Shown: piece after piece, positions 14,200 through 25,662 of the stretch
Position numbering within the stretch: the first letter of the stretch is position 1
Layout of the letters: each line of letters opens with the position of its first letter
Origin: Nitrososphaera viennensis EN76
Lineage (GTDB): Archaea; Thermoproteota; Nitrososphaeria; Nitrososphaerales; Nitrososphaeraceae
Length of the DNA: 32,000 bases
Assembly: GCF_000698785.1 (NCBI RefSeq)
Contig: NZ_CP007536.1
Coordinates: 690,001-722,000 of the forward strand
Direction: 5' to 3'
Made by a program: the position numbers and the translations under genes
Notes under the pieces: model-generated
What the model was told of the DNA's origin: nothing
Seen by the model: the letters and a program-made list of their open reading frames with translations, nothing else
Database searches by the model: none

Positions 14200-14627
14200 C
14201 CAGGCATTTTGGAAAAGTGCTGGTGGAGCATCTTCCACCCACCGCCACTCTTTTTGTCTTTTTGAAATACTATTGTGACGCGCGACTTGTTGTTGATCGC
14301 AGTCCCGCGGAAGCTATAGTCGTCGACAATGATGCCTGTGCTCTCTAGCGCAAATGTCGCAATCGCGACATCGCCCGCCACTATTTCGATCCTTAGATCG
14401 TTTATCTTAAAGTCATAATCAGAGATGCTTGCAAACTGCAGCTGCTCCAGCATGAGCGCCCTGTCGATATCGCGCAGGTCGTACGGCGGCGAGTCGCCAA
14501 ACTTTGTAAACCGCTCGGCAAAAAAGTCAGGTATCCCCTCTATCTCCTTGCTCTTGGCTATCTGGAAATATTTGTAAATCAGGTCCCTAATTTTGGCGGA
14601 ATCCGTCACGGACAATATAATGTTCAT
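14196..14627 (-). CDS. NTF2-like / SnoaL-like (DUF4440-type) protein
   Basis: 143 aa with the alpha+beta cone pattern typical of NTF2-fold proteins (...GDVAIATFALESTG...SRVTIVFQKDKKSGGGWKMLHQHFS). The palindromic TATA TTTATAAA lies ~24 nt upstream of ATG 14627. The 3' end overlaps the aldolase gene by 4 nt. Confidence 0.65.
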   Translation of the reverse strand: MNIILSVTDSAKIRDLIYKYFQIAKSKEIEGIPDFFAERFTKFGDSPPYDLRDIDRALMLEQLQFASISDYDFKINDLRIEIVAGDVAIATFALESTGIIVDDYSFRGTAINNKSRVTIVFQKDKKSGGGWKMLHQHFSKMPG

Positions 14628-14644
14628 TGGCAGGTAGAGTACAA

Positions 14645-14660
14645 AACTTTATAAATTATA
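14645..14660. promoter_or_regulatory. Palindromic TATA box (TTTATAAA, 14648-14655), apparently serving divergent leaderless transcripts
   Basis: It is centred ~24 nt from minus-strand ATG 14627 and ~28 nt from plus-strand ATG 14680. No other strong TATA element lies between 14628 and the ilvB start. Confidence 0.5.
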
Positions 14661-14679
14661 TCACTACAATCCATTCTAG

Positions 14680-14748
14680 ATGCCCCACACAGGCAGCGAG
14701 CGTTCTAGGCACAAGGTTAAGATTCTGGTCCTGTTGCTACTTGCCTAG
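14680..14748 (+). promoter_or_regulatory. Candidate leader peptide uORF (22 codons, MPHTGSERSRHKVKILVLLLLA) of the ilvBN-leuAB operon
   Basis: The ATG sits at the predicted transcription start. Seven consecutive Ile/Leu/Val codons occupy 14722-14742, and the stop TAG lies inside the 3' arm of an 8-bp inverted repeat. See findings. Confidence 0.4.
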
Positions 14749-14807
14749 ACAAATCTCTGCTGACCAGCGGGCGTTTGTCTTGAAGAATCATGGTGACAAT
14801 GTAAAAA

Positions 14808-16496
14808 ATGGTTGAAATGACCGGCGCAAAAGCGTTGATCCATGCCCTCGAGAAGGAGGGCGTAGACATAGTCTTTGGACTTCCCGGCGGAGCAAACCTC
14901 CCGATATACGACGCGCTCGTTGGCGCAAACCTCCGCCACATACTCGTGAGGCATGAGCAGTCTGCCGCGCACATGGCCGACGGCTATGCGAGGATAAAGA
15001 GGAAATCCGGCGTGTGCTTTGCCACCTCCGGCCCGGGAGCCACCAACATCATAACCGGCCTTGCCACAGCCCATGCGGATTCCATACCGATGGTCGCAGT
15101 GACAGGACAGGTGGCACTCCCAATGATAGGCAAGGACGCCTTCCAGGAGACAGACATCATAGGCATAGCAAACCCCTGCACGAAATATTCGTTCCAGCCA
15201 AGGGCGCCCGGCGAGATCCCTGAGATGGTGAAAAAGGCGTTCTACATTGCCGAGAGCGGAAGGCCGGGGCCGGTGCTTGTCGACATCCCAAAGGACGTGC
15301 AGCAGGCGACCGCTGACATGAAGTTCCCGGACCTCATCAAGGTGAGGGGCTACAACCCTGTGATAGATGCAGACCTTTCCGAGGTCGGAAAGGCGGTGGA
15401 ACTCATCTTGAAGGCCGAGCGCCCGATCATCATGGCAGGTGGCGGCGTCATACTCTCTGGCGCGTTTGCAGAGCTCCAGACGCTTGCCGAGCTTCTCATG
15501 ATACCCGTCGTTACAACGTTCAAGGGCAAGGGCGCGTTCCCAGAGAACCACCCGCTTGCGATGGGCCCGATAGGCATGCACGGCCATGCAGAGGCAAACA
15601 AGATAATCATCGAGGCAGACTGCATCATAGCAATAGGCGCAAGGTTCTCTGACAGGTCGGTGGGCCGCTTTGACGAGTTTGGCAAGGGCATGAGCATCAT
15701 CCACATGGACATCGACCCTGCCGAGATTGGCAAGAACAAGTCAGTCGACGTCGCAATAGTTGGAGACGTAAAATCGTCGTTGCGCACGCTAGTAAAACTG
15801 CTCACGAAAAAGGTGACAAAGAAAGACCCCGAGAACCCTTGGCTCAGGCGCAAGAAGGAGCTTGTGCAGTATTTTGCAGAGAACCTCAAGGACTATCCCC
15901 GCGAGATAACTGCCAAAAAGTCGCTCAAGAAGTTGCGCGAGCTCTTGCCGGCGCAGGGCATAGTGACCACCGAGGTGGGCCAGTGCCAGATGTGGGCTTC
16001 GCTCCACTTTGACGTGATAGCGCCCGGCACGTTCTTTAGCTCGACCGGCCTTGGCACGATGGGCTTTGGCTTTCCGGCATCGATAGGGGCAAAGGCAGCA
16101 AGGCCTGAAGTGCCGGTGGTCGACATTGCCGGCGACGGCTCGTTCAACATGACCGAGAACTCGCTTGCAGTGTCGGTAATTGAGAAGCTGCCGGTCATAG
16201 TATTTCTCATGAACAACTACATGCTCGGCATGGTAGCGCAGTGGCAGCGCACGTTCTACAACCGCAGGTACAGCGGCGTTCACCAGCACCACTGCCCCGA
16301 CTATGTCAAGGTGGCCGAGGCGTACGGTGCGCAGGGGATCCGCGCCCAGTCGATGGCAGAGCTAGAGAAGGCGATCAAGACGGCAATAAAGAGCGATGTT
16401 GCGACTGTGATTGACATACCGATTGACCCAGACGAAGACGTCTACCCGTTCGTGGCGCCGGGGACAAGCCTCAAGGACATGATAACAGGAGGCTAG
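14808..16496 (+). CDS. ilvB: Acetolactate synthase (acetohydroxyacid synthase) large catalytic subunit
   Basis: N-terminus TGAKALIHALEKEGVDIVFGLPGG, ThDP motif IAGDGSFNMTENSL...NN, and the expected length and domain order. A GGTGA SD-like element (14792-14796) lies 11 nt upstream. The second ATG at 14817 is an alternative start. Confidence 0.95.
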   Translation: MVEMTGAKALIHALEKEGVDIVFGLPGGANLPIYDALVGANLRHILVRHEQSAAHMADGYARIKRKSGVCFATSGPGATNIITGLATAHADSIPMVAVTGQVALPMIGKDAFQETDIIGIANPCTKYSFQPRAPGEIPEMVKKAFYIAESGRPGPVLVDIPKDVQQATADMKFPDLIKVRGYNPVIDADLSEVGKAVELILKAERPIIMAGGGVILSGAFAELQTLAELLMIPVVTTFKGKGAFPENHPLAMGPIGMHGHAEANKIIIEADCIIAIGARFSDRSVGRFDEFGKGMSIIHMDIDPAEIGKNKSVDVAIVGDVKSSLRTLVKLLTKKVTKKDPENPWLRRKKELVQYFAENLKDYPREITAKKSLKKLRELLPAQGIVTTEVGQCQMWASLHFDVIAPGTFFSSTGLGTMGFGFPASIGAKAARPEVPVVDIAGDGSFNMTENSLAVSVIEKLPVIVFLMNNYMLGMVAQWQRTFYNRRYSGVHQHHCPDYVKVAEAYGAQGIRAQSMAELEKAIKTAIKSDVATVIDIPIDPDEDVYPFVAPGTSLKDMITGG

Positions 16497-16499
16497 AAT

Positions 16500-16997
16500 A
16501 TGGACAACAACGAGCTCTACATTGTGTCGGCAATAGTCGAGAACAAGCCCGGCGTGCTCTTTCGCGTGACCAACCTTTTCAGGGCGCGCAACTTTAACAT
16601 CGAGTCGATAACGGTCGGCACTACCGAGCAGCAGGACCTTTCCAGGATGACGATAACGACTAATAGCGACGAAAAGACGCTTGACCAGCTCGTCAAGCAG
16701 TTGAGGAAATTGATAGACGTGGTCGAGGTCAAGGTGCTCGACACGGACAAGACTGTGTACCGCGAGCTTGCGCTCATAAAGATGAAGGCAGTCGACCCGA
16801 CCACGAGGAGCGAGATAATGAACTATGCCAACATTTTCAGGGGCAACATACTCGACATCGGCAAGGAGACAATAACCGTCGAGATAACAGGCACCCCGGA
16901 CAAGATAGATGCCTTTAAGAATCTGGTCGACCAATATGGCATAACGCAGTTGGCAAGGACAGGCGTATCGGCATTGCCAAGAGGAGTTGAACTTTGA
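16500..16997 (+). CDS. ilvN: Acetolactate synthase small regulatory subunit (ACT domain)
   Basis: LYIVSAIVENKPGVLFRVTNLFRARNFNIESITVG is the IlvN/IlvH ACT signature. A GGAGG lies 7 nt upstream of the ATG, which is 3 nt after the ilvB stop. Confidence 0.93.
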   Translation: MDNNELYIVSAIVENKPGVLFRVTNLFRARNFNIESITVGTTEQQDLSRMTITTNSDEKTLDQLVKQLRKLIDVVEVKVLDTDKTVYRELALIKMKAVDPTTRSEIMNYANIFRGNILDIGKETITVEITGTPDKIDAFKNLVDQYGITQLARTGVSALPRGVEL

Positions 16998-18502
16998 GCG
17001 AAGAAAAGGTCAGGATTTTCGACACCACTCTCCGCGACGGCGAGCAGTCGCCGGGCGTGACGGTGACGCCGGAGCAAAAGGTGCACATTGCGCAGAAACT
17101 AGACGAGCTTGGAGTGGACGCAATCGAGGCGGGATTTCCCATAGTGTCGGCAGGCGAGATGTACGCCGTCAAGACGATAGCAAACTCGGGCTTGAAGGCG
17201 GAGGTCTGTGGCCTTGCGCGCGCAGTCGACGCCGACATCGACGCGGCGATAAAGTGCGACTTGAAGTACGTGCACACGTTCATCGCGACCTCTGACATCC
17301 ACATGCAGTACAAGCTAAAGATGACTCGCGAGCAGGTTCTTGAAAGGGCTGTGCACGCAGTTGAGTACGCCAAAAAGCACGGCCTCAAGGTAGAGTTTTC
17401 GGCAGAGGACGCCACGCGGTCGGACAGGGCGTTTTTGATAAAGGTGTTCAGCGCAGTGGCGCAAGCGGGGGCCGACAGGGTCGACATCCCTGACACTGTG
17501 GGGTATTCAACGCCCCAGTACATCACAGAACTTGTCAAGGAGGTCAAAGAGGCGACGAGGTTGCCAATAAGCATGCACTGCCACGACGACTTTGGGCTTG
17601 CTGTGGCAAACTCGATAGCAGGCATCAACGCAGGCGCGGCGTGCGCGCACGTCACGATAAATGGGCTTGGCGAGCGAGCAGGCAATGCGTCGCTTGAAGA
17701 GTTTGTAATGGCGCTCCAGTGCCTCTACAACAAAAAGCACAACATCAAGACGCAGCTGCTCTACGAGACGTCCAAGTTTGTCTCTAACACGATGGGAATC
17801 ATCGTCCAGCCAAACAAAGCAATCATCGGCGAGAACGCCTTTGGCCACGAGTCGGGCATACACACCCACGGCGTCATCAACAACCCGCTCACCTACGAGC
17901 CCATCAGCCCCGAGCTTGTGGGAAGGAAACGCTGGCTCCAGGCAGGCAAGCACGCCGGCGCGCACGGCATCAGGGCGATGCTTGAAGAGTTTGGCATCAA
18001 CCCGAACGAAGAGCAATTGCACATGATAGTAGAGAAGCAAAAGAACATTGCAGACAAGGGCAAGGCAATCACGACGTCAGAGTTGCTCACCATAGCAGGA
18101 GAGGTGATGCACAACTCGCAGTTTGAGGAGCGCTTCAAGCTGTACGATTTTCACATCGTCACGGGCATGAACATCATCCCGACGGCAGTCATCAGGCTCA
18201 ACGCGGAGGGCAAGGACCTCATTGCGTCTGACACGGGAGTCGGCCCGGTGGACGCAGCCCTCAAGGCCATCCAAAAGATAGCCGCAGACGTGGCAAGCAT
18301 CAAGATACGCGAGTACAGGCTCGACTCCATCTCTGGAGGCTCAGACGCCCTTGCAGAGGTGTCAGTCAAGGTGGAGGACAAGAACGGTAACGTCGTCTCT
18401 GCGAGAAAGGCCAACGAGGACATTGTGGTCGCATCCGTAGAGGCGATGATGGATGCCATCAACAAGGTGCTCCTGAAAAAGGTGCTCTATTCCAAGAGCT
18501 AA
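16994..18502 (+). CDS. leuA: 2-isopropylmalate synthase (or closely related citramalate synthase), with C-terminal LeuA-dimer regulatory domain
   Basis: RIFDTTLRDGEQSPGV, HCHDDFGLAVANS and HESGIH motifs. The TTG start overlaps the ilvN stop (TTGA) and is preceded by GAGGAG. LeuA and CimA cannot be told apart by eye. Confidence 0.88.
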   Translation: MSEEKVRIFDTTLRDGEQSPGVTVTPEQKVHIAQKLDELGVDAIEAGFPIVSAGEMYAVKTIANSGLKAEVCGLARAVDADIDAAIKCDLKYVHTFIATSDIHMQYKLKMTREQVLERAVHAVEYAKKHGLKVEFSAEDATRSDRAFLIKVFSAVAQAGADRVDIPDTVGYSTPQYITELVKEVKEATRLPISMHCHDDFGLAVANSIAGINAGAACAHVTINGLGERAGNASLEEFVMALQCLYNKKHNIKTQLLYETSKFVSNTMGIIVQPNKAIIGENAFGHESGIHTHGVINNPLTYEPISPELVGRKRWLQAGKHAGAHGIRAMLEEFGINPNEEQLHMIVEKQKNIADKGKAITTSELLTIAGEVMHNSQFEERFKLYDFHIVTGMNIIPTAVIRLNAEGKDLIASDTGVGPVDAALKAIQKIAADVASIKIREYRLDSISGGSDALAEVSVKVEDKNGNVVSARKANEDIVVASVEAMMDAINKVLLKKVLYSKS

Positions 18503-18538: not shown

Positions 18539-19564
18539 TTGACAAGGTACGTCATTTCGCTCATCAGAGGGGACGGGATAGGGCCCGAGCAGACGGCGGC
18601 CGCTAAAAAGATCCTCGAAGCAATAAGCGACAACACGTCTACAAAATTCACCATAAACGAGGTAGAGGCAGGCGACGCGGCCCTTGCCAAGCACGGAAAG
18701 GCCCTTCCGGAATTTTCGGTCGACACCATCAAAAACTCGCAGGCGTGCCTGAAGGGGCCAGTAGGCGAGAGTGCGGCCGACGTCATCATAGTTCTCAGGC
18801 GCATGTTCGACCTCTATGCAAACGTCAGGCCGGCCAAGTCGTACCCGAACATCCCGGCGCTTTCTCCAAAAGTAGATATGGTGACGGTGAGGGAGAACAC
18901 GGAGGACGTCTACCTTGGCTGGGAATTCAACGCCGACCCCGGTACCGTGGTCGCATTAAGGATCACTTCTGAAAAGGCGTCAAGGAGGATTGCCGAGTAC
19001 GCGTTCAAGACGGCGACGATGCGCGACAGCAAGCGAAAGGTGGTCGCGGTGCACAAGGCAAACGTGATGCGCAAGGGCGACGGGCTCTTTGCGTCGGTGT
19101 GCAGAGAAGTCGCCAAAAAGTACCCCAGGATACAGTACAGCGAGCTCTACGTCGACGCGGCGTCGATGAACCTCATCCGCAACCCGGAAGAGTTTGACGT
19201 CATCGTCACCACCAACCTCTTTGGCGACATCCTGTCAGACGAGGCAGCGCAGGTAGTCGGCGGGCTTGGCATGGGCCCGGCGGCAAACATTGGCGAGGGC
19301 TTTGCGCTCTTTGAGCCGGTTCACGGCGCGGCGTTTGACATCGCCGGCAAGAATGCGGCAAACCCATCGTCGATTCTGCTTTCCGCCAAGATGATGCTTG
19401 AATGGCTTGCCGACAGGCACAAGGACAGAAAGGCGGCAGAGCAGGGCGCCCGAATAGAGGAGGCCATAGTCGGCCTTCTAAAGCAGGACAAAAAGACAAA
19501 GGACATCGGGGGCAAGCTGTCTACCACGGAATTCACCGATCTCGTGGCAAAAGAGCTGTTTTAG
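18539..19564 (+). CDS. leuB: 3-isopropylmalate dehydrogenase (isocitrate/isopropylmalate dehydrogenase family)
   Basis: LIRGDGIGPE, VRENTEDVY and NLFGDILSDEAAQVVGGLGMGPAANIG motifs. TTG start with an SD-like GTGATGAGG upstream. Confidence 0.85.
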   Translation: MTRYVISLIRGDGIGPEQTAAAKKILEAISDNTSTKFTINEVEAGDAALAKHGKALPEFSVDTIKNSQACLKGPVGESAADVIIVLRRMFDLYANVRPAKSYPNIPALSPKVDMVTVRENTEDVYLGWEFNADPGTVVALRITSEKASRRIAEYAFKTATMRDSKRKVVAVHKANVMRKGDGLFASVCREVAKKYPRIQYSELYVDAASMNLIRNPEEFDVIVTTNLFGDILSDEAAQVVGGLGMGPAANIGEGFALFEPVHGAAFDIAGKNAANPSSILLSAKMMLEWLADRHKDRKAAEQGARIEEAIVGLLKQDKKTKDIGGKLSTTEFTDLVAKELF

Positions 19565-22385: not shown

Positions 22386-22593
22386 ATCGATAAAAAAAGT
22401 CCTCGTGCTTGGAAGTGGGGCAATAAAGATCGGAGAAGCAGGCGAGAGCCAGTAAAGCTGTAAAAGGCCTGGCCGCAAATTCGACTACTCCGGTTCCCAA
22501 TGCCTCAAAGCCCTAGCAGAGGAAGGAGTCAAGAGCGTACTCATAAACCCCAACATCGCAACGATTCAGACCGACACCCGCTTTGCAGACAAG
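22382..22593 (+). other. carB: Disrupted 5' region of carB: out-of-frame ATG (22382), conserved N-terminal coding segment (22390-22446), 33-nt TAA-containing insertion (22447-22479), conserved coding sequence without a start (22480-22593)
   Basis: The same frame as the main carB ORF translates as IKKVLVLGSGAIKIGEAGE / SQ*SCKRPGRK / FDYSGSQCLKALAEEGVKSVLINPNIATIQTDTRFADK. The flanking parts together form the canonical CarB N-terminus. Confidence 0.75.
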
Positions 22594-25500
22594 GTGTACC
22601 CCGTCCCCATAAACACGCAGTACGTCGAGCAGGTGATAAAGGAGGAAAAGCCAGACTCGATAATGCTCGGGTTTGGCGGCCAGACAGCGCTCAACTGCGG
22701 GGTCGCGCTGCACGAGCAGGGCATACTTGAAAAGTACGGGATGCGCGTGCTTGGCACCCAGATAAAGGGCATCGAGATCACCGAGGACAGGCAGCTGTTC
22801 AAAGACGCGATGGTAAAAAGCGACGTGCCTGTGCTCAAGAGCTACGCGGTCAATTCCATCCAGGACGCGCTCAAGGCGGCAAAAGAGCTAGAATATCCGG
22901 TCATAATCAGGGTCGCGTACACGCTTGGAGGGCGTGGAGGCGGGGTCGCGTACAACGAGCTGGAGCTGCAAGAGATTGCGCAGCGCGGGCTCAACCTCAG
23001 CATGGTGCACCAGGTGCTCATCGAAAAGTACGTGGGCCACTGGAAGCAGGTCGAGTACGAGGTGATGCGCGACTACCACGGAAACAGCGTCATCGTCTGC
23101 AACATGGAAAACGTGCTTGCGATGCGCGTGCACACCGGCGACAACATCGTTATTGCGCCGTCGCAGACGCTCAACAACTATGAATACCACATGCTGCGCT
23201 CGGCGGCCATCCGCGCGACGGGCTACTGCGGAATCGTTGGCGAGTGCAACATCCAGTTCGCCCTCGACCCGACGTCAGAGCAGTACACAGCAATTGAAAT
23301 AAACGCCAGGCTTTCAAGGTCGTCGGCGCTTGCAAGCAAGGCCACCGGCTACCCGCTTGCGTACATGGCTGCAAAAATCGGCCTAGGATATTCACTTCCG
23401 GAACTGCTCAACAGGATAACCAAGGTAACGACAGCATGCTTTGAGCCTTCGCTTGACTATTGCGTTCTAAAGATGCCCCGGTGGGATTTCAGCAAGTTTG
23501 AGCTTGTCAAGCGCAAGCTTGGAAGCGCCATGAAGTCAGTCGGCGAGGTGATGGCGATTGGCCGCAACTTTGAGGAAGTCCTGCAGAAGGCAATCAGGAT
23601 GTCTGCCACAGGCAAGGATGGCCTTGTGGCAAACGGAAACGACGCGCAGAAGGAAGAGGACATCGAGCGCATCGAGCAATCTCTCTTGCAGCCAAGCGAC
23701 GAGATAATCTACAACGTCGTTCGGGCCATGAAGGCAGGAATGAGCATCGAGCGCATCTACCAGCTGTCGGCCATAGACCCGTGGTTCCTGACAAAGATAA
23801 AGAACATCGTCGACATGGAAGAGAAGCTGAAAAAGGCGGGCAGCTTTGACGGCGACATGGTCAGGGACGCAAAAAAGATTGGCTTTTCAGACAAGCAGAT
23901 CGGCAGGTGCCTTGGCACCGACGAGATGCAGGTGCGCGCAATGCGCGAAAAATTCGGGATAAAGCCGGCAGTCAAGCAGATAGACACGCTTGCGGCAGAG
24001 TGGCCTGCCAAGACCAACTACCTCTACCTCACCTATGGCGGCAATGAAGACGATGTAATAATCAAGAAGGATACCAAGAACAACAGCAGGATGGTAGTCC
24101 TCGGCGCCGGCCCGTACAGGATTGGAAGCAGCGTCGAGTTTGACTGGGGCACGGTCAACATGGTGTGGGGCTTGAAGGAAAACGGCGTCAAGGAGATATC
24201 AGTCATCAACTGCAACCCCGAGACGGTATCGACAGACTATGACATCTGCGACAGGCTGTACTTTGAAGAGCTGACGCTGGAGCGCGTGCTTGACATATGC
24301 GACAAGGAGCATCCAACGGGCATCGTGACTTGCGTCGGAGGCCAGACGGCAAACAACCTGACCCCAAAACTGGCAAAGAATGGCATAAAGATAATCGGCA
24401 CGAGTAGCGAGGACGTCGACAGGGCGGAGGACCGCGCCAAGTTCGGCCAGCTCCTCGACACTCTGGGCATAAAGCAGCCAGCGTGGAGGCAGTTTACGCA
24501 CCTTGCAGAGGCCAAAGAGTTTGCCGAGACCGTAGGCTATCCGGTGCTTGTCAGGCCGTCGTACGTGCTTTCCGGCGTGGCCATGAAGGTGGTGTGGGCC
24601 GAGCAGCAGCTGCAGCGCTTTTTGACCGACGCCACGAACGTCAACCCCGAGCATCCCGTGGTCATCAGCAAGTTCCTGCAGGACGCGGCAGAAGTTGAAG
24701 TCGACGCGGTGTCTGACGGCAAGGACGTGCTCATTGGCGCGATAATCGAGCACATCGACAACGCAGGCGTGCACTCGGGCGACGCAATGATGAGCATACC
24801 GCCTTGGAGGCTTGACAGGCACATCATGGAGACAATAACAGATTATTCGGTCAAGATAGGCAGGGCGCTAAACGTCAAAGGACCATTAAATATCCAGTAC
24901 CTCGTCAAGGACGAGCAGGTGCTTGTCATAGAGGCAAACGTGAGGGCTTCCCGCTCGATGCCCTTTGTGTCAAAGTTTGCCGGTGTCAACATCATCAACC
25001 TTGCCGCAAAGGCGATGCTTGGCAAGCCGCTCCCGGCAAAAGCAAAGGACCTGTGGCTCAAGGCTCCCGGCTTCGGGGTCAAGGTCCCGCAGTTCTCGTT
25101 CATGCAGCTTGAAGGCTCGGACATCGTCCTTGGAGTGGAGATGCAGTCGACAGGCGAAGTTGCGTGCTTTGGCAACACGTTCTATGACGCGCTGTCAAAG
25201 GCGTACATGGCGGCTGGGTATTCGCTTCCGCTTGCTGGCTCGGTGCTGATAACCATCGGCGGCCAAAAGAACAAGGAAAAACTGCTGCCGCTAATATCGA
25301 TGCTTGCATCGATGAACTACAAGATCCTTGCAACCGAGCACACGGCCGAGTTCATGGAGAACAACAACGTCAAGGACGTGGAACTGGTGCACAAGATAAG
25401 CGAGCCGGGCCGCAAGCCCAACATCGCCGACATGCTCTATGAAAGAAAACTGGACTTTATAATCAACATACCGGCAACGTCGACGCTTGAAAAGTATGTC

Positions 25501-25662
25501 GGCATGCTGCAGGACGAGTACCTGATACGCAGAAAGGCGGTAGAGATGGGAGTCCCGGTGCTCACCACAGTCGAGTCGGCAAGCTCATTTATCAAGACGC
25601 TAGAGTGGCTGCGCGCAAATACGCCGACGCTTGGGCCCCTTGGCAATTACGCTAAACTCTGA
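22594..25662 (+). CDS. carB: Carbamoyl-phosphate synthase large subunit, longest uninterrupted ORF (1022 codons); lacks ~60 N-terminal residues that are encoded upstream but interrupted
   Basis: Two ATP-grasp halves (…IIRVAYTLGGRGGGVAY… and …VLVRPSYVLSGVAMKVV…), an oligomerisation domain, and a C-terminal MGS-like allosteric domain. GTG 22594 is merely the first canonical start after the in-frame TAA at 22453. Confidence 0.93.
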   Translation: MYPVPINTQYVEQVIKEEKPDSIMLGFGGQTALNCGVALHEQGILEKYGMRVLGTQIKGIEITEDRQLFKDAMVKSDVPVLKSYAVNSIQDALKAAKELEYPVIIRVAYTLGGRGGGVAYNELELQEIAQRGLNLSMVHQVLIEKYVGHWKQVEYEVMRDYHGNSVIVCNMENVLAMRVHTGDNIVIAPSQTLNNYEYHMLRSAAIRATGYCGIVGECNIQFALDPTSEQYTAIEINARLSRSSALASKATGYPLAYMAAKIGLGYSLPELLNRITKVTTACFEPSLDYCVLKMPRWDFSKFELVKRKLGSAMKSVGEVMAIGRNFEEVLQKAIRMSATGKDGLVANGNDAQKEEDIERIEQSLLQPSDEIIYNVVRAMKAGMSIERIYQLSAIDPWFLTKIKNIVDMEEKLKKAGSFDGDMVRDAKKIGFSDKQIGRCLGTDEMQVRAMREKFGIKPAVKQIDTLAAEWPAKTNYLYLTYGGNEDDVIIKKDTKNNSRMVVLGAGPYRIGSSVEFDWGTVNMVWGLKENGVKEISVINCNPETVSTDYDICDRLYFEELTLERVLDICDKEHPTGIVTCVGGQTANNLTPKLAKNGIKIIGTSSEDVDRAEDRAKFGQLLDTLGIKQPAWRQFTHLAEAKEFAETVGYPVLVRPSYVLSGVAMKVVWAEQQLQRFLTDATNVNPEHPVVISKFLQDAAEVEVDAVSDGKDVLIGAIIEHIDNAGVHSGDAMMSIPPWRLDRHIMETITDYSVKIGRALNVKGPLNIQYLVKDEQVLVIEANVRASRSMPFVSKFAGVNIINLAAKAMLGKPLPAKAKDLWLKAPGFGVKVPQFSFMQLEGSDIVLGVEMQSTGEVACFGNTFYDALSKAYMAAGYSLPLAGSVLITIGGQKNKEKLLPLISMLASMNYKILATEHTAEFMENNNVKDVELVHKISEPGRKPNIADMLYERKLDFIINIPATSTLEKYVGMLQDEYLIRRKAVEMGVPVLTTVESASSFIKTLEWLRANTPTLGPLGNYAKL

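Follow-up and report, generated by a model that had tools for sequence, protein, structure and literature searches.

A conserved branched-chain-rich upstream reading frame at the ilvB-ilvN-leuA-leuB operon of Nitrososphaeraceae: a candidate archaeal leader-peptide sensor

In Nitrososphaera viennensis EN76, the ilvB, ilvN, leuA and leuB genes follow one another in a 32,000-nucleotide (nt) stretch of contig NZ_CP007536.1 (positions 690,001 to 722,000), which is the whole of the DNA that we analyzed and is called the window below. We found that a short upstream open reading frame (uORF) in the leader of ilvB, which carries a block of Ile, Leu and Val codons close to its stop codon, shows conservation and the marks of a coding sequence in at least nine Nitrososphaeraceae sequence clusters, and the comparison also supports a leaderless start for this uORF. 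The ilvB-ilvN-leuA-leuB operon makes precisely the amino acids that are encoded in the uORF run. On balance, the sequence evidence leans toward the uORF being a cis-acting leader-peptide sensor of branched-chain amino acids for this operon, a reading that we consider somewhat probable. The robust features are a translated-looking uORF, the branched-chain codons in its last ten positions, a hairpin that abuts its stop codon, and a constant spacing to an accessible Shine-Dalgarno element of ilvB.

Results

Organization of the leader and the operon

The elements of the leader and the genes that follow it are listed here in window coordinates.

14648-14655: palindromic TATA box TTTATAAA, with an A-rich stretch 5' of the box that resembles a transcription factor B recognition element (BRE)
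14680-14748, plus strand: leaderless uORF of 22 codons and a TAG stop codon, ATG at 14680, translation MPHTGSERSRHKVKILVLLLLA-stop
14716-14742, plus strand: Ile/Leu/Val-rich block, GTT (Val), AAG, then ATT CTG GTC CTG TTG CTA CTT
14704-14749, plus strand: hairpin P1, 5' arm 14704-14715 within the uORF, 3' arm 14740-14749
14747-14780, plus strand: hairpin P2, outer stem 14747-14754/14773-14780, inner stem 14756-14761/14766-14771, loop 14762-14765
14774-14782, plus strand: U-rich 3' arm and tail of P2, TTTGTCTTG, a weak U tract
14792-14796, plus strand: GGTGA, Shine-Dalgarno-like element of ilvB
14808-16496, plus strand: ilvB, ATG at 14808 (NCBIfam TIGR00118; protein 100% identical to N. viennensis IlvB)
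16500-16997, plus strand: ilvN (NCBIfam TIGR00119/NF008864)
16994-18502, plus strand: leuA (NCBIfam NF002085)
18539-19564, plus strand: leuB (NCBIfam TIGR02088)

In the window, the ATG of the uORF lies 32 nt past the start of the TATA box, the leader is 128 nt long, and 59 nt separate the uORF stop from ilvB. A scan of the window found no TATA-like element between the box at 14648-14655 and ilvB, and TATA-like elements stand 28-35 nt 5' of the starts of other window genes (e.g., 12274 and 14627). An original prediction, which described this region as a leader-peptide attenuator, had placed the TATA box, the uORF, two inverted repeats, the GGTGA element and the ilvB ATG, and on re-reading all of these positions were exact, including those of the repeats TCTAGGCA (14704-14711) / TGCCTAGA (14742-14749) and AGACAAA (14747-14753) / TTTGTCT (14774-14780). 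It had also described the gene junctions of the operon as overlapping or 3 nt long. This is true of ilvB-ilvN (3 nt) and ilvN-leuA (4-nt overlap), but leuA and leuB are 36 nt apart. Its assignment of a leaderless uORF with a branched-chain-rich C-terminus to the ilvB-ilvN-leuA-leuB transcription unit is supported by the comparative data given below.

The palindromic TATA box is 28 nt from the ATG of a divergent SnoaL-like gene (14627) and 32 nt from that of the uORF. A single box could therefore drive both of these putative leaderless starts. The box is flanked by a 7-nt inverted repeat, ATATAAT/ATTATAT (14615-14621 / 14655-14661).

Conservation of the uORF in Nitrososphaeraceae

For comparison we used 80 Nitrososphaeraceae ilvB loci (L001-L080) from species-representative genomes, with IlvB identities of 81-94%, which together with the window made 81 loci. 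A comparable branched-chain-rich uORF was present at the same place upstream of ilvB in 46 of the 81, the window counted. These uORFs were 19-34 codons long and their stop codons lay 52-69 nt 5' of ilvB. In 43 of the 46, the scan found a TATA box 31-36 nt (mostly 32 nt) 5' of an ATG-started short ORF, and it is this spacing that supports the leaderless start. The divergent SnoaL-like gene was kept in only 9 of the 45 uORF-bearing relatives, while the other 36 had a different neighbor and retained the TATA box and the uORF; thus, the unit belongs to ilvB. Searching 575 kb of related DNA for the same architecture (TATA box, 30-35 nt, ATG, short ORF, long ORF) gave 46 matches. The uORF accounted for 39 of these, and none of the 7 others in that DNA contained an Ile/Leu/Val run of at least four codons. 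The uORF was distributed among Nitrososphaera, Nitrosopolaris-labelled and allied genomes (L001-L040, with few exceptions, and L044, L048, L052, L056 and L079).

In the 46 leaders, the GGTGA element of ilvB was also well preserved, lying 7-12 nt upstream of the start in 40 and replaced by GGTGG, GGGGA, GATGA or GGAGT in the remaining six. The first codon of ilvB varied among ATG, TTG and GTG in the relatives, and a second Met, at codon 4 (MVEM; window 14808-14819), was invariant. The first codon may be a true start that tolerates different triplets, or translation may begin at codon 4; the distance from GGTGA agrees with the former.

Loci from two further groups of the family had other conserved upstream sequences. 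The AT-rich clade L042-L058 has a different conserved block, ...TTAGTAGTACTTTAGATTAAGTTTTATCCAACTTATATTATAAG..., approximately 130 nt 5' of ilvB and a probable TATA-like box of its own approximately 28 nt before the ilvB ATG. In four of its members (L046, L050, L054 and L058), a TTG-started short ORF lies 33 nt past an upstream TATATAAA and ends in ILVVL, IVVVL or ILIIF before its stop codon. We considered this ORF as a uORF homologue and found it doubtful, given earlier in-frame stop codons in three other members, the lack of RNAalifold support for a long stem seen by eye, and the TATA-like box close to ilvB. The block may be a relic of the uORF or the site of a different regulator. In the clade L059-L080, the region 60 nt upstream of ilvB contains a conserved TTGACAACGAGTATATATACGAAG(C/T)ATCAATGAATATTCGTACAATG, by which a TATA box (TATATATA) comes to lie approximately 33 nt from the ilvB ATG. 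This arrangement suggests that ilvB is itself leaderless in these genomes and has no uORF.

Coding signature of the uORF and its branched-chain codons

Among the leaders, 31 from Nitrososphaera could be aligned. Gaps inside their uORFs were 3, 6, 9 or 15 nt long, all multiples of three, and column entropy at the first, second and third codon positions was 0.62/0.30/0.66 for the whole uORF and 0.63/0.42/0.91 for its N-terminal part. Within the Ile/Leu/Val run, the corresponding values were 0.61/0.18/0.40, with the second position held as U and the first switching among A, G, C and U. This pattern of a fixed second and a varying first position matches the prediction of selection for any of Ile, Leu and Val.

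The enrichment in branched-chain codons was specific to this reading frame and to its end. When nine sequence clusters were weighted equally, Ile, Leu and Val made up a fraction of 0.60 of the last ten uORF codons (0.69-0.80 in the genus), as compared to 0.13 in the rest of the uORF, 0.21 and 0.10 when the same bases are read in the two alternative frames, and a background of 0.227 of codons in window genes. The window uORF has these residues at 8 of its last 10 codons. Positions -10, -8 to -4 and -2 before the stop stay Ile, Leu or Val, whereas -9 and -3 are free (K, H or D at the former; R, E, K, T, S or W at the latter). Clusters that have diverged beyond nucleotide alignment share such tails (...SVILLLHQLVP, ...AVAVRMLLL, ...VAVVMLL and ...FLVHLHILIL, each followed by the stop codon).

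The original prediction had argued that a run of seven branched-chain codons in this leader was unlikely by chance. We counted 3 runs of at least seven in the 63,996 six-frame codons of the window, which is about 5e-5 per codon and corresponds to about 0.01 expected in the leader. This is suggestive, but from one window it is not conclusive. It is the conservation in 46 of 81 loci that lifts the uORF, and with it hairpin P2, above chance.

Third positions within the run were more conserved (0.84-1.0) than those of conserved ilvB codons (0.60). The block also uses rare codons: GTT, ATT, TTG and CTA, which make up 5-14% of their families, account for 4 of the 8 branched-chain codons in the window. 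Selection on codon identity would fit both observations, and an RNA constraint could also explain them. The unusually conserved third positions also speak for an untranslated uORF, whose open frame would be incidental to an RNA or DNA element bound by a regulator such as an Lrp-type factor. Archaeal amino-acid operons are usually under the control of Lrp-family DNA-binding proteins. Such an element would have to accommodate indels in threes, a three-base periodicity of variation, a constant TATA-to-ATG spacing in 43 loci, and a stop codon kept beside P2 although the clusters have diverged beyond alignment; P2 itself behaves as an RNA feature, as judged by its G·U pairs and strand asymmetry. 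We therefore regard an untranslated element as very improbable.

A second alternative accepts translation and denies sensing, making the uORF a constitutive ribosome-loading or translational-coupling device for ilvB, or else a small protein that is functional in itself. This would account for the conserved N-terminus, MP(R/Q/D)xxxE, in which third positions are the most variable, and for the constant spacing from the stop codon to the ilvB Shine-Dalgarno element; moreover, archaeal ribosome profiling reports uORFs without a known sensing role (PMC7261190). On the other hand, the length ranges from 19 to 34 residues and only the Ile/Leu/Val character at defined positions is common to all clusters. 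The charged residues at -3 and -9 of the tail speak against a membrane or helix role, and 52-69 nt to ilvB looks long for termination-reinitiation. A codon run matching the products of the operon would, furthermore, have to be a coincidence. A translated uORF with no sensing role thus appears rather unlikely to us.

Hairpins P1 and P2

P2 has a predicted stability of -15.3 kcal/mol, and its 5' end in the window coincides with the AG of the TAG stop codon. A hairpin begins 1-11 nt past the stop in most of the 46 leaders; about six (L013, L014, L017, L027, L044 and L037) have a weak hairpin or one at a different position. Its stem sequence differs from cluster to cluster (CUCUGCU/AGCGGG, CCCUG/CAGG, CGUGCUU/AAGCACG and GCUCUGC/GCAGGGC). 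RNAalifold on a MAFFT alignment of 31 leaders returned no consensus fold, with the arms misaligned between subgroups by bulge and register shifts, and we replaced it with per-sequence folds, a comparison of native with chimeric arms, and pair counts on sub-alignments. For 19 of 21 cluster pairs, native P2 arms gave a more stable fold than chimeric ones (-11.2 vs -8.6 kcal/mol). The sub-alignment counts gave 96% pairing in the outer stem, with 2 compensatory pairs. Of the P2 pairs, 17% were G·U, and in 37 of 46 leaders the sense strand folded more stably than its antisense. These two properties indicate that P2 acts as RNA and not as a DNA palindrome, and on the same grounds a DNA palindrome or transcription-factor site at P2 was rejected.

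In P1, the Ile/Leu/Val codons lie in the loop, and the 3' arm spans the two final uORF codons, the stop and the single base that follows. In the 31 Nitrososphaera leaders, 83% of cells were paired, as compared to 27-48% in slid controls, and three pairs had changed on both sides, one of them being GC in 12 sequences and CG in 8. Because the 3' arm is made of the Leu, Ala and stop codons, coding and pairing constraints on P1 are inseparable. There is some comparative support for both P1 and P2.

The inverted repeats are unremarkable by themselves. The window contains 30 perfect 8-bp inverted repeats with loops of 3-60 nt, and shuffles contain 30 as well, so that 0.12 are expected per 130 nt; for 7-bp repeats the expectation is 0.57. 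The fold of 14678-14830 was as stable as those of shuffled sequences (z = 0.01) and contained P1 and P2 side by side. The claim that the two hairpins cannot form together was not borne out, as their overlap is limited to 3 nt and the minimum-energy fold contains them both. Searches of Rfam, whose families include bacterial leaders, gave only two chance-level matches (E above 3) for positions 14300-15100 at a cutoff of E up to 10, and no match at gathering score for seven related loci.

How the position of the ribosome could be read out

The original prediction held that ribosome speed over the branched-chain codons selects between the two structures and so sets read-through or ilvB translation. 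In a classical bacterial-type attenuator of this sort, P1 and P2 would be mutually exclusive, P2 with its U-rich tail would be an intrinsic terminator, and a stall would select the read-through fold. Several properties of the window agree with this scheme: P1 and P2 overlap by 3 nt and the pairing potential of P1 is kept in the genus, P2 is GC-rich, is followed by a U-rich stretch and is listed by a scan for terminator-like sites, and in the cluster of L006, L007 and L011 the predicted probability of P2 drops with a ribosome at -14 to -9. Against the scheme, both hairpins are present in the minimum-energy fold, and in other clusters their arms are adjacent instead of overlapping.

A T stretch of terminator grade at the end of P2 found no support. 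From the uORF stop to the Shine-Dalgarno element, the maximum U run was 2-4 nt in 46 of 46 leaders, with no run of at least 5, whereas genuine gene ends in the window have T5-T7 runs. Although the terminator-like consensus scan listed the P2 site, such sites were not enriched (11 vs 6.8±2.7 expected). Archaeal termination is described as dependent on U-rich tracts, with no requirement for hairpins (PMC7515710), which also speaks against a classical attenuator. We considered the possibility that P2 hides a U tract that a terminating ribosome exposes; this was seen in the subgroup of the window only (unpaired probability 0.10-0.16 rising to 0.36-0.54) and was not general.

No antiterminator was detected in comparisons of the run with the P2 3' arm or of the uORF head with the run, where complementarity had z values of -0.1 to -1.4 against shuffles. 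These pairings had looked convincing by eye, as CUG/CAG motifs recur, and were rejected as no better than shuffles. We modeled the archaeal ribosome with a footprint that covers 12 nt on the 5' side of the P site and has its 3' edge 15-16 nt from that site, according to published archaeal ribosome profiling (PMC7261190). In the window, P2 had a predicted probability of approximately 0.95 for every stall position within the run. It was high with the A site at -14 to -3, and P2 was lost only with the A site on codons -2 to 0. Since a stall in the run would leave P2 folded, a terminator at P2 would shut the operon off under starvation, which is the wrong sign. Thus, a classical attenuator is an unlikely explanation of this leader.

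Control at the ilvB ribosome-binding site fared no better. The mean unpaired probability from the Shine-Dalgarno element to the start of ilvB in the 46 leaders was 0.55 in naked RNA, 0.58 with a ribosome at the uORF stop and 0.57 with a stalled ribosome. A switch that sequesters this site was rejected on the basis of the equal accessibility in the three states, which excludes a mechanism of the erm or the mycobacterial type. With neither an antiterminator nor a change in accessibility, the proposed selection between two structures finds no support.

An effect on mRNA stability would need no alternative structure, and no structural switch could be demonstrated here. In this explanation, stalled and queued ribosomes on the uORF would shield the 5' end from 5'-to-3' exonucleolytic decay, giving a longer-lived mRNA when Ile, Leu or Val is scarce. 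In Bacillus, erm mRNAs are stabilized by a stalled ribosome in an analogous way. Protection of this kind would have the right sign, and with the uORF beginning at the 5' end and the run 37-63 nt away from it, a second ribosome would fit on the start codon behind a stalled lead ribosome. A conserved hairpin directly at the stop codon would go unexplained. We consider control of mRNA stability an unlikely explanation.

Proposed mechanism

Transcription and translation are coupled in archaea. For the uORF as a sensor of charged Ile-, Leu- and Val-tRNA, with P2 as the element that reads the position of the ribosome, we propose the following scheme. Transcription would start approximately 25-30 nt past the TATA box, so that the AUG lies at or beside the 5' end of the RNA, where a ribosome would load. 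When Ile, Leu or Val is scarce, the ribosome would be held on the branched-chain codons, -10 to -2 before the stop, and when they are plentiful it would reach the uORF stop. With a footprint extending approximately 12-13 nt past the first base of the A site, P2 would be opened only from the last two codons or the stop. The modeled geometry would in this way separate a ribosome held in the run, with P2 closed, from one that completes the uORF, with P2 opened. Given negative feedback and a P2 that is closed during a stall, closed P2 would most likely be the ON state: a ribosome held further back would leave P2 folded and the operon expressed, whereas repeated opening of P2 by finishing ribosomes would expose its conserved G-rich/U-rich 3' arm, GCAGGGCGUUUGU, and lower expression. 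The exposed arm might then lead to factor-dependent 3'-end formation or cleavage, with aCPSF1/FttA as candidates. That open P2 is the operon-off read-out is a doubtful part of this scheme, which we put forward tentatively and on the modeled geometry. Where transcription starts, that the uORF is translated, that amino acids matter, in which direction expression changes and which effector acts downstream are all inferred.

Several observations weigh against a sensor. According to the tests and modeling described above, none of the three established read-outs (antiterminator, U-run terminator and ribosome-binding-site control) is demonstrable: the U runs are short in every leader, complementarity is at the level of shuffles, and the ilvB start is equally accessible in all ribosome states. 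The thermodynamic signal of P2 is modest (mean z of -1.6 against shuffles), several deep-branching leaders fold weakly, and independent compensatory events are few in P1 and P2 alike. Two sister clades of Nitrososphaeraceae are without the uORF. The N-terminal residues of the uORF (MPxxxxE, MP(R/Q/D)xxxE) are also conserved, which a pure sensor would not need. Three loci deviate: L023 has a TTG start, L033 has ACG in place of ATG in an otherwise intact frame, and L037 is frameshifted between the ATG and the Ile/Leu/Val tail. A leader analogue for another amino acid was not found; the scan for His runs described below, among the matches listed, says nothing about archaea. A literature search for transcription-start, leaderless-transcript, ribosome profiling or Term-seq data from N. 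viennensis or Nitrososphaera found none.

The isolate name of L037 (MFD) suggests a long-read assembly. If their genomes are accurate, the leaders of L023, L033 and L037 may serve as natural mutants.

Other observations

We scanned one metagenome set for a TATA box with a leaderless ATG and a run of at least five His codons, as a measure of how general such leaders are. Among the matches listed, after filtering, there were at least three short ORFs, L128 (~2076-2135), L133 (minus strand) and L183 (~311-397), with the translations MFTNQLHHHHHLNQAQARQ, MNNINLIHHHHHLI and MYSAQFHHHNHHHHHKNFHRQWSGVRLS, respectively. These lie 50-130 nt 5' of ORFs of 285-294 residues with HisG-like N-termini (...LKIAIQKSGRL...). 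Our guess from their sequences is that they look like bacterial his leader peptides.

Elsewhere in the window, carB (22389-25662) is interrupted within the conserved motif GEAGE/FDYSG, between its two halves, by a 33-nt insert with a TAA stop (~22447-22479). The insert folds into a structure like a bulge-helix-bulge, with 3-nt bulges, a central GCG/CGC helix and an inner GCCAG/CUGGC hairpin, and both junctions lie in the bulges. The same flanks, GGCGA(A/G)A/GCCAG...CUGGC/CGC(A/C)AA/UU (slashes marking the divisions), occur in N. evergladensis, in an N. gargensis-type contig and in a third genome, and the inserts in these relatives are as follows.

L201, ~2775-2796: carB insert, 22 nt
L202, ~2850-2870: carB insert, 21 nt
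L203, ~2815-2843: carB insert, 29 nt

Gene callers place the carB start 198-274 nt late in the three relatives. Two of the insert lengths shift the frame, and the insert must therefore be spliced out of the mRNA. It is probably a mini-intron in a protein-coding gene, of 21-33 nt across these genomes. In our literature search, cbf5 was the sole protein-coding gene found to be described with such an intron (PMC2738675).

Discussion

The closest analogue of the N. viennensis leader is the ilvBNC attenuator of Corynebacterium glutamicum, where a leaderless, Ile/Leu/Val-rich peptide of 15 residues, IlvL (MTIIRLVVVTARRLP), attenuates the operon (PMC11857589). In both cases, a short ORF rich in these codons lies 5' of ilvB-ilvN on the same transcript, at or next to the transcription start (a predicted one in N. 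viennensis), and has no ribosome-binding site. In the 292-nt leader of C. glutamicum, experiments support hairpins that act as terminator, antiterminator and anti-antiterminator, whereas in the 128-nt archaeal leader neither an antiterminator nor a U tract is demonstrable. The two have no sequence relationship, and transcription and its termination in N. viennensis depend on archaeal machinery.

Enterobacterial attenuators (ivbL-ilvBN, ilvL-ilvGMEDA, leuL, thrL, hisL and trpL) have a run of codons for the end product, then a hairpin before the first structural gene. The archaeal leader shares this order, a leader ORF with codons for the end products of the pathway followed by a hairpin. The enterobacterial leaders, in contrast, contain ORFs led by a Shine-Dalgarno element, four pairing regions and a terminator made of a hairpin plus U8, while the archaeal leader has no Rfam match above chance level.

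A third comparison is with the polycysteine ORFs of mycobacteria, such as Ms5788A of the 'Cys ribulon', in which pairing between the Cys codons and the Shine-Dalgarno region of the following gene brings about translational attenuation (bioRxiv 10.1101/834739). These ORFs are likewise leaderless first cistrons with the regulatory codons at the 3' end and biosynthetic genes downstream. They differ in the pairing with the Shine-Dalgarno region; for ilvB, neither such pairing nor a change in accessibility is predicted. In the tnaC-tnaA system of E. coli, a ribosome stalled at the leader stop codon blocks the termination factor Rho. By analogy, the logic would be the same in N. viennensis, with a ribosome at the end of the leader ORF deciding on the access of a termination factor, and aCPSF1/FttA in the place of Rho. 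The archaeal ribosome would, unlike that on tnaC, stall upstream, the hairpin would do the shielding, and the archaeal effector is hypothetical.

Taken together, the archaeal leader has the ORF of a leader-peptide attenuator and its enrichment in codons for the operon's own end products, and shows no exclusive antiterminator above the level of shuffles. As to the terminator, the hairpin is conserved, with U runs of only 2-4 nt as compared to T5-T7 at real ends. The constant accessibility of the ilvB Shine-Dalgarno element and start likewise sets the leader apart from translational attenuators of the erm/cat or polycysteine type. Thus, judged by its sequence, it appears attenuator-like in concept and not fileable within the bacterial family.

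The original prediction had noted that no archaeal equivalent was known. This agrees with a 2021 paper, according to which archaea have no known case of transcription attenuation or antitermination (PMC8448881), and our literature search for archaeal leader-peptide attenuation found no case. The locus is best read as encoding a leader peptide that senses amino acids, a type so far undescribed in archaea. It is quite possible, though we stop short of calling it probable, that this would be the first ribosome-mediated amino-acid-sensing leader peptide in Archaea, conserved across Nitrososphaera, Nitrosopolaris and allied ammonia oxidizers of soil, and one with a non-bacterial read-out by a stop-abutting hairpin that links the level of charged Ile-, Leu- and Val-tRNA to the cleavage or stability of the ilvBN-leuAB mRNA or to factor-dependent formation of its 3' end.

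The uORF is conserved in dozens of species, one of which, N. viennensis, is cultured, and this makes it a locus at which cis regulation by archaeal ribosomes can be tested. It raises the question of how such a leader would work with a eukaryote-like polymerase and aCPSF1/FttA instead of Rho and intrinsic terminators, and also that of an independent origin of leader-peptide logic in both prokaryotic domains. If the sensor reading is true, this leader would represent the first known regulatory input into the amino-acid biosynthesis of ammonia-oxidizing archaea.

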